A DNA stretch of 64,000 nt from an uncultured Verrucomicrobia subdivision 3 bacterium (GCA_903918885.1 CAIXFY010000027.1:76542-140541); one strand, 5' to 3'; shown: positions 28,871 through 38,246, counted from the first letter of the stretch. The notes: generated by a model from the sequence alone, not told the origin. Translations and numbers: made by a program.

Positions 28871-28931
28871 AGCCACAGATAGACACAGATTGGAGCGTAG
28901 CTAATGCCTTGGCCATCTGTGTTTCATCTGT
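28871..28931. repeat. Two-tier palindromic intergenic element (AGCCACAGA family)
   Basis: Sequence: AGCCACAGAT-AG-ACACAGAT, then a 24-nt loop, then ATCTGTGT-TTC-ATCTGTc. The inner 8-bp arms are perfect. The outer arm is truncated on the right, and its perfect complement ATCTGTGGCT is found at 38237-38246 across the island. Confidence 0.7.
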
Positions 28932-29115
28932 CATCAAGTTAATAAACCCCGCATCAACGCAGGGTTTCTTGGGACGATGGACGGCCACTGTCAGTGGATT
29001 TGTCAGTATTGCGGCGGGTTGAATCACAATTCGCCACTATTCTGCCACTACGCCACTGAAACCCGCCCACAACTCCTAAACGGGTTGCGACCAATCTCGT
29101 GCATGATTCAGACCT

Positions 29116-30141
29116 ATGCACATGAAAACAAAATTCACCCTGTTTCGCCGTGGCGAGGTCTATTATAGCCAAGACTCTGCCACCGGCAAGCAAACGAGTC
29201 TCCGCACCAAAGACGAGACCGAAGCGCGCAGCCTGTTAAACGCCCGCAACGAGGCGCAACGGCAGCCGGTGCTTAATCTGCATCTTGCCCGCGCCTATCT
29301 GACCGCCAGCGACCCCGCGTTTGTCGAACGCACTTGGCAGATCGTCATGCACCAGTTACAGGCACGCGGCAAGGCGAGCAGCCGCGAACGCTTTGCCACC
29401 GCGTTCAAGTCGCCAGTCTTGGACGGCTTGCGGCACAAGCGATTGCTGGAAACGACTTCGGATGATTTCTTTGCCGTGTTCAAAGATGCCAAGCCGTCCA
29501 CCGTCTGTTTTTTGAAGCGGCTGCATCATCTGGCGTTGAGCGCGGGCTGGATCGCTCTGCCGATTGTCGCGCCGAATCTCTGGCCGCGTTACAAGCCCAA
29601 AGACCGACGCGGCATCACGCCGGACGAACACGAAAGCATTCTTGCCCGCGAGAAAAACGCGGAATGGAAATTGTTTTTGGAACTGCTCTGGGAAACCGGC
29701 GCGGCGCAAAGCGACGCGGTGAACTTCAAGGCGGAGGACATTGACTGGACGAGCCGGACGATTTCCTATTTCCGCATGAAGACCGGCACGCTGGCGCAGT
29801 TCACCATCAGCAAGAAATTGGAAGCCGTCTTGAACCATCTGCCGACGACGGGCGCACTGTTTCCGAGCCTGTCCACGCACCCCGCTAACTTCCGGGCAAA
29901 CCGGTTCCGCTATCGCTGCGGCGTTGCGGGCGTGTCCGGCGTGACGCTCCATTGTTACCGCTACGCATGGGCGGAACGCGCCAAAACGGTCGGGATGCCG
30001 GAACGGTTTGCACAGGCGGCCTTGGGCCACGGCAGCAAGGCGATTCACCGCGCCTACTCCAAGAAAGCGCAAATCATCGTGCCGAGCCTTGAGGACTACG
30101 AACGGAAAGCGGCCAGCCCGCCGCCCATGGTGACGGCCTAA
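29116..30141 (+). CDS. Tyrosine recombinase / phage-type integrase (atypical box I)
   Basis: 341 aa. Box II is intact (LHCYRYAWAERA = HxxR, then LGHGSKAIHRAY with the catalytic Tyr). Box I reads ETGAAQSD, where TGxRxxE is expected. Confidence 0.8.
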   Translation: MHMKTKFTLFRRGEVYYSQDSATGKQTSLRTKDETEARSLLNARNEAQRQPVLNLHLARAYLTASDPAFVERTWQIVMHQLQARGKASSRERFATAFKSPVLDGLRHKRLLETTSDDFFAVFKDAKPSTVCFLKRLHHLALSAGWIALPIVAPNLWPRYKPKDRRGITPDEHESILAREKNAEWKLFLELLWETGAAQSDAVNFKAEDIDWTSRTISYFRMKTGTLAQFTISKKLEAVLNHLPTTGALFPSLSTHPANFRANRFRYRCGVAGVSGVTLHCYRYAWAERAKTVGMPERFAQAALGHGSKAIHRAYSKKAQIIVPSLEDYERKAASPPPMVTA

Positions 30142-30152
30142 AAATAAAACGG

Positions 30153-30186
30153 GCGGTTGAGCTTAAAACACTCAACCGCTTTTTTG
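30153..30186 (+). terminator. Rho-independent terminator after the integrase gene
   Basis: A 9-bp stem GCGGTTGAG / CTCAACCGC with loop CTTAAAACA, followed by TTTTTTG. It starts 12 nt after the stop. Confidence 0.75.
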
Positions 30187-30247
30187 TCTTTTGGGGACGG
30201 TTGCCGTCCCCAAGCCCCTTGCACCAGAGACGTATCTCTGGACTTTC

Positions 30248-36700: not shown

Positions 36701-36994
36701 CGTGATGTTGTAAATCGGCTGGCTTAAATCTGGTGGCGGACAAGGCCAAGGCGCGCTGACGCCATTGGAGGAAACCACCCAGTAAGTGCCGAACCCCGGC
36801 AGATTCGCCGGATCAATCTGCGCCAAACCTTTCGCCTCGGCGGTCACGGCCACAACGGAATCCGGCTGCGCCGGTTGCTCAATGCCGCTGGCTTGAACGG
36901 GTTGAGCCGATTGAAAAGATAGTTGTGCGTGCAGAACGCCCAGAAGTGTCAGCAGTCCCAGCCCGATGAATAATCCGCCTTTGATTGATTTCAT
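33797..36994 (-). CDS. Large secreted protein with four Calx-beta domains and a C-terminal beta-rich domain
   Basis: 1065 aa with a signal peptide (MKSIKGGLFIGLGLLTLLGVLHAQ). There are four repeats of about 118 aa, each carrying Y(R/M)(V/I)SGTASNGVDYT...F(A)PGETATNI.I.PL.D.L.EG.E(S/T)V.LTL, at roughly 34717-36142. The stop lies 5 nt before the PEP-CTERM gene start. Confidence 0.8.
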   Translation of the reverse strand: MKSIKGGLFIGLGLLTLLGVLHAQLSFQSAQPVQASGIEQPAQPDSVVAVTAEAKGLAQIDPANLPGFGTYWVVSSNGVSAPWPCPPPDLSQPIYNITGNIFLVDATRGQVMSASSRRAGRSGMTVTAEQVTTAVEALANSVANLVEQVLGAQVTQKLATALGMEEDSSQQQRSFAPMLASYSPTTLWLEVTSLDTTNQLATVLAHNTSETNLYQLLSNTNLLDNWWQPGEIRFGDTATNTTLFTPVDITDNPLMFFRIHQAGWAVSISASLDAVEPFGGVPGQAGLFYISGYQASGVTNNVTVYYRVSGTASNGVDYTALSGVATLTNGTGSTPIVINPIADSLLEGMETVTLTLMRTNDYLIDPNNSTATINLYDSSTTVSISAGGYDAIEPDGPPGVAATTGTFSVYRSDFRGIYTNAMKVQYMVSGTASNGVDYTRITNTVTFAAGETATNIIINPLKDNLPEGVESVTLTLLPTNSYAVDANNYAASLNIYDSSTTVSMGVSAAAAVEPNGPPGAPAVPATFSFSRYDTRGIYTNLPVRYVITGTASNGVDYTFLGGTVNFAPGITTTNIDITPLADTLAEGLETVTLTLLDNATNGYFIETNNATGTATIADSTTTVGIYNAQNTIEPGFNTNNYPGQTGYFTLTRADDNGFYTNLTVRYVISGTASNGVDYTKITNTVTFAPGETATNINIQPLLDYLIEGDETVILTLVATNGYMVAATAAAETNTIQDTVLFTTVTSITSPVGIDYHAPSNSLIVSYNYSSGSPYNFVRLYTNAPSTNLLMTNWSNVSGVSEEVKLATVKKTVNGFTNGEVYFGSDTGIGKLSANGSVSNLSWCVLTNATVVNPLLLRGSLYVDQTGTFSNQVIAVTSGADVTLGNKGVWRVDAQAHPTLITNINTKHLEGVITLTNDVAKWGPWAGKIITGDEDALDQNLNSSPVIYTIATNGAVATYYTTNMIEGGIHPEDFDMIPANQNLYACDNGNGRLIKLSANYFTNYVGDLLIADAGENVTPNQGKLFIVHWNAATTNFVTYVIPYLLEDGSYGRFEHVTFAPIELPNQ

Positions 36995-37709
36995 TTATTC
37001 CCTTTCTTCGCGAACCCTGTCCCGGAACTAAAGAGCGCGGACTCGACGCACTCTGTCCCAGGCACCGCGAAGCGCCTTCCAACATAGCACGCCAAGCCGC
37101 GCCAGTTGGCGCGTGCTTGGTGATAATGTTGGAGGCTTGGAAATTCGCGGTTTCGGGACAGCCCCGTAGCCAAAGCTACGCAAATATGTTTTAGTTCTTT
37201 GTCGGATATAGCCGACTGGTTTGTTTCTACGCCCGTCACTGCCGATTGACAAGACTTTTTTGGTAAAGTTCCCCTTGCGCGCGAGACTGCCAGATTGGGC
37301 ATTCCCCTTAAAAGACGACGCCTGACCAATCCGCCAGACTCACGCTCTCCCTATGTTTGACGGAGACTATGGAAAGTTGGCACTACCGCGCAAATTGCCG
37401 TGGCGCGTCCATGCCAATTTTCCACAGACTCCGAGGGTTTGAATTGAAAAGTTAGTTGGGTTGTTTGTCTTCGCCTTTTTTAGCTGCCGTCATTCCCCAC
37501 CGTCTGCCGCTCACTCGTCCGACAACCAGCCGAGTTTGGTAGCGAGATCAAAAACCGCGCCAGCGTGTCCCCTTCACCCTCTTCCCCACTGTCACGCTTT
37601 TAGCTTTCGCTTGGTATGGATTGCATTTCATGCACGGCTCGCTGTCTCCCGCAATGGTGAAGCGAGCAGCATACGGCAGGGTGACGGACAGCGGTTTCAA
37701 AAAAAAGCT

Positions 37710-38072
37710 ATGAAAACAACAAATCAAACAATTGAAGCGAAACAAGCTCCGGCGAATGTCCGGCCATCGTCGGCTTCAAAACATCAGATGAATCGGGGAT
37801 TATCCACACAGGCGGTCTTGAACTGCTTGCGGTCAAAGTTGCCGCAGCAATACGAATTGGCGGAAGTTGTCGGCAAATGGGTTTGGCTCGATGTGTCACC
37901 AGCACGGAAGCCGATGCTGGCAAAAATGCTTTGGTCTTTGGGCTTTCACTGGAATCAGCGGCGCGGCGTCTGGCAGCATCCTTGCGGTAGCTTTGACCCG
38001 CTCGGCAGTCATCCCACCGACCCGCGCAGCAAGTATCGCTGCTATTTTCCCGCCGATGTTTTGCCCGCCTAA
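37710..38072 (+). CDS. Hypothetical small protein at the right end of the island
   Basis: 120 aa from the ATG at 37710. The annotated ORF from 37461 begins with TTG and has an implausible leader. The C-terminal pattern VGKWVWLDV...LWSLGFHWNQRRGVWQHP recalls small orphan proteins of plasmids and ICEs. That recollection is unverified. Confidence 0.4.
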   Translation: MKTTNQTIEAKQAPANVRPSSASKHQMNRGLSTQAVLNCLRSKLPQQYELAEVVGKWVWLDVSPARKPMLAKMLWSLGFHWNQRRGVWQHPCGSFDPLGSHPTDPRSKYRCYFPADVLPA

Positions 38073-38216
38073 ACCTAGAAATTCGCCACCGGCACTGTCA
38101 GTGAAAGTGTCAGTGAAAATTCACGCGGGTAGTGAAAAATTGTGGCGCGTTAAACCAAATAGTCTTTAATTTTACCAACGATTTGCTAATTTCCCTTTGT
38201 CTGAATCAATGCTAAA

Positions 38217-38246
38217 GATGTGTTTCATCTATACAAATCTGTGGCT
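38217..38246. repeat. Half copy of the AGCCACAGA-family palindromic element immediately downstream of gcvP
   Basis: Sequence: GATGTGTTTCATCT-ATACAA-ATCTGTGGCT. The last 10 nt are the exact reverse complement of 28871-28880 and overlap the gcvP stop codon (38245-38247). Confidence 0.65.

Follow-up and report, generated by a model that had tools for sequence, protein, structure and literature searches.

Classical tyrosine-integrase genomic islands and integrative mobilizable elements combine a terminal PF00589 integrase, an adjoining small accessory gene, a shared core sequence, and variable cargo, and those of the lambda-Int-like kind usually reside at tRNA genes. A 64,000-nucleotide stretch of DNA from an uncultured Verrucomicrobia subdivision 3 bacterium (GCA_903918885.1 CAIXFY010000027.1:76542-140541; here, the window) very probably contains an element of this build, namely, a 9.3-kb site-specific integrative element integrated at positions 28918 to 38230 in the genome of an uncultured Verrucomicrobiia (Limisphaerales-like) bacterium. 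As in the classical islands, one copy of the core is present in the empty site, and distant relatives of the integrase (46 to 58% identity) are found beside tRNA-Cys, tRNA-Asn, and tRNA-Thr genes. In contrast to the classical islands, the clade to which the window integrase belongs targets ATCYGTG..., a short unit belonging to dispersed palindromic repeats, and no tRNA gene. Because of this target, the same element is found at more than one locus.

In its small size (about 9 to 17 kb) and its int/xis-like/rep module, the element resembles the integrative and conjugative elements of actinomycetes (AICEs), and the module suggests, by analogy, that it may be an integrated plasmid-like element able to replicate after excision. 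Unlike the AICEs, it has no FtsK-like Tra or spread genes and no tRNA target, it resides in another host phylum, and none of the known Rep families gives a significant match to its Rep-like protein. A second point of comparison is CTnDOT, the integrases of which also lack the canonical first arginine of the catalytic pentad and use several chromosomal sites with a short consensus (PMC8138268, PMC2034462); in IntDOT, a downstream arginine substitutes for the missing first catalytic arginine (PMC8138268). The window integrase has no detectable sequence membership in the CTnDOT integrase subgroup (only PF00589 was matched), its element lacks conjugation genes, and the cores of its family are fully identical over 11 to 16 bp, whereas CTnDOT tolerates a 5-bp nonhomologous segment.

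Repeated extragenic palindromes serve as landing sites for the insertion sequences IS1397, ISKpn1, ISPpu9, and ISPpu10 (PMC1525189, PMC12288879). These insertion sequences, which target repetitive extragenic palindromes (REPs) or bacterial interspersed mosaic elements (BIMEs), are cargo-less, are 1 to 2.5 kb long, and employ DDE or IS110-type transposases, whereas the window element is 9.3 kb long, carries cargo, and encodes a tyrosine recombinase. Similarly to REPs, REP doublets forming hairpins (REPINs), and BIMEs, the target described here is an extragenic multi-tier palindrome at gene ends, with unoccupied copies in related genomes (PMC3116915, PMC3333891), but its units are only about 10 bp long, with two or three per arm and long variable loops. 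In the IS200/IS605, IS91, and REP-associated tyrosine transposase (RAYT) systems, an HUH protein is the sole mobility gene product and no target repeat stands at the ends, whereas an integrase is always present in the family described below. Insertion sequences targeting REPs are known (PMC1525189); our literature search found no account of tyrosine-integrase elements targeting REP-like repeats.

Occupied and empty forms of the gcvP site

The element is flanked on the left by glgB, a gene for an Exo_endo_phos protein (xth, exonuclease III-like), and a gene for a hemerythrin-like protein, and on the right by gcvP. Its boundaries are formed by the following features.

28918..28929, plus strand: attL copy of the core, TGTGTTTCATCT
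28930..29115, plus strand: left end of the element (P' arm of attP), with GGCCACTGTCAGTGGATTTGTCAGT at 28981-29007 and repeated GCCAC motifs
38073..38218, plus strand: right end of the element (P arm of attP), with ACCGGCACTGTCAGTGAAAGTGTCAGT at 38088-38114 and the end motif CTGAATC-N8-AAAGA at 38201-38218
38219..38230, plus strand: attR copy of the core, TGTGTTTCATCT

A preliminary description of the window, made from the sequence alone, had proposed an island bounded by a 12-bp direct repeat. Direct reading places the 12-mer on the same strand at both positions, and a search of the window that tolerated one mismatch gave no other match (shuffled sequences contained a mean of 0.32 matches, and two matches were reached in 4 of 100 shuffles). 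An exact look-up of the hemerythrin-like protein led to 13 contigs from several metagenomes. The unoccupied hemerythrin-gcvP junction that the preliminary description had suggested searching for is present in near-identical strains, as the sequences of contigs L002 and L005 and the gene order of contig Wbs3Bwfn show; in all three, 173 nt separate gcvP from the hemerythrin-like gene (by gene order in the last). In a BLAST comparison, L002 corresponds to window positions 39318-38219 joined to 28929-18330 with a 12-nt overlap (100% and 99.99% identity), and L005 has the same junction. The sequence of the empty site is ...AGCCACAGATAGACACAGATTGGAGCGTAGCTAATGCCTTGGCCATC-TGTGTTTCATCT-ATACAAATCTGTGGCTAAG..., with the attB junction reading ...GGCCATCTGTGTTTCATCTATACAAATC..., and it equals exactly the product of deleting the interval in silico. 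Since the empty site holds the 12-mer only once, the two copies in the window do not represent independent members of the repeat family, a caveat that had been attached to the island from the start and is herewith resolved.

The site is occupied in contigs L001, L004, L007, and L008, and its occupancy is polymorphic across ten samples. Assembly breaks coincide exactly with the repeat in some contigs (L006 at 28918-28929; L004 and L090 at 38229), as is to be expected of assemblers where alternative junctions coexist in a population. No contig has the Calx-beta/PEP-CTERM operon at gcvP in the absence of the integrase module, a combination that would have spoken against an island; the operon, which forms the cargo, is always accompanied by the integrase module, also at the second locus described below.

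Inside the boundaries, an imperfect 27-nt direct repeat (D12) is shared by both ends, with 28981-29007 matching 38088-38114. The left-end region upstream of the integrase gene is conserved in about 60 related loci, and its GCCAC motifs (28930..29115) are candidate arm-type integrase sites. Base composition does not delimit the element: the GC profile, which had been proposed as a check, has no step at either boundary (about 0.50 to 0.57 on both sides) and dips, to 0.45 to 0.49, only at 33000-34250. The 64-kb window contains no tRNA or tmRNA gene that could serve as the target, an Rfam scan of the whole window matched no family, and a scan for promoters and terminators gave nothing above chance except a terminator between int and the xis-like gene.

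A second insertion locus upstream of a ThuA-like gene

Two members of the 90% cluster of the integrase, P0121 and P0122, led to contigs L089 and L091; by exact look-up, the window allele of the integrase differs from every database allele. In both contigs, the same left end of the element is joined to other host DNA (...TTTAATTTTGAAAAATCA-GTGTTTCATCT-GTCATCAAGTT..., with the junction read as ...GAAAAATCA / GTGTTTCATCT / GTCATCAAGTT), the insertion lying about 70 nt upstream of a ThuA-like gene. Identity to the window begins at 28919, position 28918 being A instead of T; because of this difference, the core shared at the ThuA site is 11 bp long (GTGTTTCATCT) and the crossover falls to the right of 28918. 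The 9,311-nt contig L090 extends from 28919 to 38229, so that both of its ends are inside core copies. Three assemblies (ERZ27313616, ERZ18668469, and ERZ1426600) each contain a contig with the empty gcvP site alongside a contig with the ThuA-site copy, and the gcvP site is occupied in other samples.

When the copies of the element in L001, L004, L008, L089, L090, and L091 are compared with the window, all differences fall within 29130-32784, i.e., from the integrase gene to the gene of the longer XRE regulator, while the 5.4-kb cargo part (32785-38229) is 100% identical. The differences are grouped in patches (29259-29283, 29577-29625, 29709-29784, 29867-30030, and 32197-32560), the combinations of which vary by contig. 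Sequencing noise was considered for the clustered single-base differences in int and rejected, because shared patches recur in different combinations across contigs. The patchwork suggests that related elements have recombined or that alleles were co-assembled, and it is because of the patchwork that several contigs break inside int.

Integrase family and target specificity

Relatives of the integrase were found at more than 515 genome loci and among more than 4,674 database proteins (E<=1e-60), nearly all of them from metagenome-assembled genomes of Verrucomicrobiia, Limisphaerales, or "subdivision 3", with 88 to 89% identity in the best genome match. A gene for a 121-aa protein lies beside int in most loci and a Rep-like gene with orf97 in a subset, whereas the Calx-beta/PEP-CTERM cargo is unique to the window element among these loci. 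When the sequences upstream of int are aligned, they show a conserved arm (...AAAGGGTTTCTTGA...GGCCACTGTCAG..TGTCAG...) that has its end at ...CATCTGTGTTCAAGTT.

Two clades differ in the host DNA that adjoins this arm. (i) Among integrases with at least 75% identity to that of the window, the host DNA on the left consists of tandem ATCYGTGTYY units, e.g., ATCCGTGTTTATCCGTGTCCATCTGTG. At least two ATCYGTG units are present on the host side of attL in 34 of 39 loci, and a complementary arm, TTAACCACGGAT-GGACACGGAT-RAACACGGAT, lies 60 to 170 nt further left in at least 16. Unoccupied three-tier palindromes occur nearby (e.g., in L010 at about 8700-8810), and a tRNA gene adjoins int in none of 40 loci. 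(ii) In the clade with 46 to 58% identity, by contrast, a tRNA-Cys(GCA), tRNA-Asn(GTT), or tRNA-Thr gene ends about 190 to 320 nt upstream of int in 27 of 40 loci, and ATCYGTG units are absent from all 24 loci bearing the arm motif. Read most simply, the two patterns mean that the family exchanged tRNA genes as its target for the repeat unit of a palindromic element.

Two complete relatives have the same end architecture as the window element: L025, with 4.9 kb between copies of a 16-bp repeat (CCGTGCCCATCTGTGG), and L039, with 6.9 kb and a 15-bp repeat (CCGTGTCCATCTGTG). In all three elements, the right-end motif CTGAATC-N8-A[AC]AGA directly precedes the core. The lengths of the repeats vary while the cores are related, which is the mark of a shared recombination core and not of a target duplication of fixed length. 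The preliminary description holds both in its observation and in its reading of an inserted island, every check that it had named as decisive having come out in its favor; as a refinement, the repeat is the attP/attB core of a site-specific recombinase and not a target duplication of the transposition type. The three reconstructed attP cores all read A[AC]AGA-N9-TCTGT, an inverted repeat that appears to be of the kind flanking the overlap regions of tyrosine recombinases, from which putative cleavage sites may be placed. A subgroup of the repeat-targeting clade (L015, L024, L034, L035, and L042) has the junction CCATCCTA[CA][GA]...CAAGT in place of CCATCTGTGTTCAAGTT, a hint that the core has diversified further in this clade.

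These findings bear on a simpler explanation, according to which the island is fixed chromosomal DNA and the empty contigs arose by spontaneous homologous or slipped deletion between chance 12-bp repeats, with no dedicated recombinase involved. Its composition does not flag the island as foreign, and the 12-mer shares bases with a unit of the palindromic repeat family, both of which are in keeping with such an origin. Yet the element recurs at the unrelated ThuA locus with the same left end and the same core, relatives with other cargo share the end architecture and have analogous core repeats, and about 40 related integrases are encoded at an equal distance from a motif of the same kind. We therefore regard spontaneous deletion of fixed DNA as extremely improbable and retain integration by a site-specific recombinase.

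The target palindrome

The core of the gcvP site is part of a palindrome, the arms of which are separated by the element and are found where the preliminary description had placed them.

28871..28889, plus strand: left (5') hairpin arms in host DNA, outer AGCCACAGAT (28871-28880) and inner ACACAGAT (28882-28889), which pair in the fold of the empty site
28915..28922, plus strand: right half of the inner stem, ATCTGTGT, overlapping the start of the core repeat
38237..38246, plus strand: right (3') outer arm, ATCTGTGGCT, overlapping the gcvP stop codon (TAG, minus strand, 38245-38247)

Deletion of the element brings the outer arms to a distance of 65 nt, start to start, and the empty site folds into the two-tier hairpin that had been predicted (as RNA in the gcvP sense, -30.5 kcal/mol, z=-3.0; as DNA, z=-3.0). 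The outer stem is formed by UUAGCCACAGAU and AUCUGUGGCUGA and the inner stem by ACACAGAU and AUCUGUGU. With its start at the gcvP stop codon and a weak U tract behind it, the hairpin would plausibly act as the gcvP terminator. The insertion splits the hairpin, since the core extends over the internal loop and over the inner stem's 3' half.

CCACAGAT occurs only three times in the window, and the repeat family has three copies in these 64 kb. The hairpin at 62051-62116, cited earlier as a member of the same family, is indeed a multi-tier palindrome of the same general family, but its units (62053-62114) are CACAGAG/CTCTGTG and not CACAGAT. A closer member, with CACRGAT/ATCYGTG units, is located at 61086-61140 (61075-61150 folds with z=-6.05). 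Both palindromes, 61086-61140 and 62053-62114, are unoccupied and are potential additional landing sites or terminators. Related loci contain 8.9 palindrome clusters per 100 kb, mostly the attL sites themselves.

As expected for an extragenic imperfect palindrome, the target folds better than shuffled sequences in the empty site (z=-3.0) and in the reconstructed attB of L025 (z=-2.2); the latter is a strong multi-tier hairpin, unlike the attB of L039. The possibility that all targets are true hairpins was considered and rejected: in L039, the attB as reconstructed has no folding advantage over shuffled sequences, and the flank on the ThuA side (i.e., the available left flank) has no complementary arms. 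It appears that the integrase reads the sequence of the unit, which is usually but not always placed inside a palindrome.

In several related loci (L016, L018, L022, L028, L030, and L033), an outer arm, TTAACCACGGAT or CAGCCACAGAT, lies 8 to 20 nt from CAT, the start codon of a divergent gene. The palindromes thus abut both gene starts and gene ends, and insertions may therefore affect the expression of neighboring genes.

Catalytic residues of the integrase

The integrase gene lies at the left end of the element, next to the P' arm.

29116..30141, plus strand: tyrosine recombinase of 341 aa (PF00589, E=2.3e-10; phrog_1; profile alignment with XerA and Gp33)

The match to PF00589 scores 41 bits against a cut-off of 27.1, and that to the phrog_1 integrase family has an E value of 5.6e-18. 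No N-terminal domain family was matched in Pfam, and all NCBIfam matches of the integrase are far below their cut-offs. Residues K222, H279, R282, H305, and Y314 are conserved. In two independent profile alignments with PDB entries, the sequences GLRVSE of XerA (4a8e) and GLRVHE of Gp33 (5vfz) align opposite G195-A-A197-Q-S-D200, so that the position of the canonical first catalytic arginine (Arg I) is occupied by Ala197. This holds throughout the family, whether the clade targets tRNA genes or repeats. Two residues before K222 is an invariant arginine, R220, which, by analogy with IntDOT, is a candidate substitute for Arg I.

A Rep-like protein

Two genes of the element co-occur in relatives.

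30957..31541, minus strand: HUH Rep-like protein (Rep194) of 194 aa, with motifs FFTTHTF, RPHQHSL, and ADYICKCLGANAYE
31553..31846, minus strand: orf97, which co-occurs with the Rep-like gene in relatives

The 194-aa protein is likely an HUH Rep-like protein. It has 210 relatives, in which the motifs FxTxTF, RPHxHxL, and ADYxCKCLGANAYE are conserved, and some of these relatives match PF23343 (REP_ORF2-G2P) with 25 to 26 bits, below the cut-off of 27.8 bits. The best Foldseek matches of its AlphaFold2 (AF2) model (predicted local distance difference test [pLDDT] score, 73) are HUH nuclease domains, namely, those of parvovirus NS1, adeno-associated virus (AAV) Rep, circovirus Rep, and RAYT (4er8); the matches are weak (E of about 0.01, template modeling [TM] score of 0.33 to 0.42). 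No match to a PDB sequence and no relative in IMG/VR was found.

A protein of this kind raises the question of whether the element could instead be moved by single-strand, hairpin-directed transposition of the IS200/IS605, IS91, or RAYT kind. The HUH-like motifs, the presence of a RAYT among the weak structural matches, and the targeting of palindromic repeats, which is also a trait of RAYTs (PMC3333891, PMC2817692), would agree with it, and it would explain the hairpin target. However, the Rep-like gene is absent from most relatives with the same target, including the complete L025, whereas the integrase and the conserved arm sites are always present and stand at a fixed distance from the junction. 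Furthermore, insertion of the IS200/IS605 type leaves no identical sequence of 12 to 16 bp at both ends, while cores of 11 to 16 bp are found here, and the targets at L039 and at the ThuA locus (in its available left flank) are not hairpins. HUH-driven movement of the element is thus highly unlikely, and we attribute its integration to the tyrosine recombinase.

Other genes of the element

The remaining content agrees with the accessory genes that had been listed in the preliminary description: between the repeats are the PF00589 integrase, two HTH_3 (XRE) regulators, Calx-beta and PEP-CTERM proteins, and several unmatched open reading frames (ORFs).

30153..30179, minus strand: terminator-like hairpin separating int from the convergent xis-like gene
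30248..30613, minus strand: 121-aa int-linked protein (Xis121), candidate directionality factor
31973..32185, minus strand: XRE-family helix-turn-helix (HTH) regulator of 70 aa (HTH_3, E=1.5e-9)
32342..32719, plus strand: XRE-family HTH regulator of 125 aa (XRE125), divergent from the 70-aa one (HTH_3, E=8e-8)
32725..33222, plus strand: orf165, also present in the related element L030
33147..33791, minus strand: cargo, secreted 214-aa protein with a PEP-CTERM sorting signal (PF07589, E=6.9e-5)
33797..36994, minus strand: cargo, secreted 1,065-aa protein with four Calx-beta domains (PF03160, E=9.9e-33, four stretches)
37710..38072, plus strand: orf120 (MKTTNQ...), conserved gene at the right end, C-terminal part of a longer 203-aa ORF

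Homologues of the 121-aa protein were collected as 68 stop-to-stop ORFs from about 80 related loci, in which they usually adjoin int, and its 2,257 database relatives are all without annotation. A homologue of orf120 has the same end position in the 4.9-kb L025 and is also present in L045. The orf120 family comprises 423 representative clusters (E<=1e-3), which share the motif AEVVGKWVW...LGFHWN..R..WQHPCG and have no match in Pfam or PDB; gene callers did not call orf120 in the public contigs. Inside the Calx-beta gene are four repeats, each about 360 nt long (34816-36072; 61 to 79% identity), which correspond to the Calx-beta domains.

Among the 11 ORFs of the 9.3-kb element, no type IV secretion system, coupling protein, or relaxase is encoded, and no FtsK-like Tra was found in 28918-38230. 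An element that is so small and without transfer genes of its own may be a defective prophage or a phage satellite, with the XRE pair as a CI/Cro-like switch and a helper phage for packaging and transfer. The integrase together with the divergent XRE pair, and the PHROG matches to integrase and repressor families, are consistent with this origin. On the other hand, all other ORFs of the element have no PHROG match, there are no capsid, terminase, portal, or primase-like genes in it and none for virion formation, packaging, or the hijacking of a helper, and the Rep-like protein has no relative in IMG/VR. We consider a phage origin unlikely, if less so than the two alternatives discussed above; it concerns only the route of transfer between cells and does not conflict with the mechanism of integration.

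Model of integration

According to our model, Int would recombine the core of a circular form of the element (attP, predicted to read ...CTGAATCAATGCTAAAGA-TGTGTTTCATCT-GTCATCAAGTT..., with the junction ...CTGAATCAATGCTAAAGATGTGTTTCATCTGTCATCAAGTTAATAAACC...) with the same 11 to 12 bp in the chromosome (attB). Because recombination between attP and attB shares the core, one copy is left at each junction. At gcvP, attB would lie in the 3' arm of the two-tier palindromic hairpin that starts at the stop codon and is probably the terminator of the gene. The 121-aa int-linked protein would be the likely directionality factor in excision, and the Rep-like protein may let the excised circle replicate or be nicked for mobilization. 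The divergent XRE pair is a possible switch, and the Calx-beta/PEP-CTERM surface-protein operon would be carried as cargo. The data demonstrate the boundaries, the empty site, the second insertion locus, the integrase family, and the target motif common to it; excision to a circle, the roles of Xis121, Rep194, the XRE pair, and orf120, the positions of cleavage, and the route between cells are inferred.

Several observations weigh against this model or parts of it. (i) Two exact-pattern scans of Joint Genome Institute (JGI) metagenome contigs, for the right end plus core and for the core plus left end, gave no match to a circular junction or excised form, a result to be read with the consideration that the JGI collection probably does not include the European Nucleotide Archive (ENA) source samples; scans of JGI metagenome contigs with the element-end patterns likewise gave no further insertion sites. 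(ii) The ThuA-site copy is known from its left junction only, and its attB cannot be reconstructed. (iii) Metagenome assemblies can be chimeric, as is exemplified by contig sfRLLYiW (ERZ1426671), in which gcvP-side and ThuA-side ends appear to be joined. On its integrase side is the ThuA-like locus, and on its cargo side a 37-aa gene fragment lies exactly 1,251 nt from the Calx-beta gene, which is the spacing at gcvP; the contig is probably an assembly chimera across two copies of the element or a real recombinant between copies. (iv) With alanine at the canonical Arg I position, the activity of the integrase depends on a presumed substitute arginine. (v) The 121-aa protein has no statistically supported fold (AF2 pLDDT, 51) and no match in Pfam or PDB, even when its homologues are searched member by member. 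(vi) The Rep-like assignment draws on motifs, on Pfam matches of relatives below the threshold, and on weak structural matches.

Implications

As a tyrosine-integrase genomic island with a surface-protein cargo, the element is of an ordinary kind. What raises its interest is the direct population evidence of its mobility, its noncanonical catalytic site, and the targeting of a repeat unit by a very large unannotated family of Verrucomicrobia that has tRNA-targeting relatives. For the host, the findings mean that 28918-38230 was recently mobile and that the Calx-beta/PEP-CTERM operon is strain-variable cargo and not part of the core genome. The family to which the element belongs is very large and essentially without annotation in Verrucomicrobia of soil, peat, and freshwater, the integrase and int-linked relatives being labeled hypothetical proteins. 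Two of its traits are unusual for tyrosine integrases, i.e., a palindromic-unit target that permits alternative loci and the family-wide loss of the canonical first catalytic arginine.

Repeat-targeting integrases with cores of 11 to 16 bp are possible markers for delimiting islands in metagenome-assembled genomes and could explain recurrent assembly breaks. They are also candidate tools for multisite integration in a phylum for which few genetic tools exist.

We tentatively propose, as a scenario that is still rather doubtful, that the repeat-targeting clade, which lacks Arg I, moved from tRNA genes to a dispersed multi-tier palindrome unit and that its elements reshape and spread these palindromes. 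Because attP carries about 1.5 repeat units, the palindromes may be reshaped or spread by integration, excision, and recombination between copies. If this is true, the elements of the clade would have tens to hundreds of landing pads per genome, and they would drive the repeat landscape of their hosts and the rewiring of terminators and 5' regions, not only use them.

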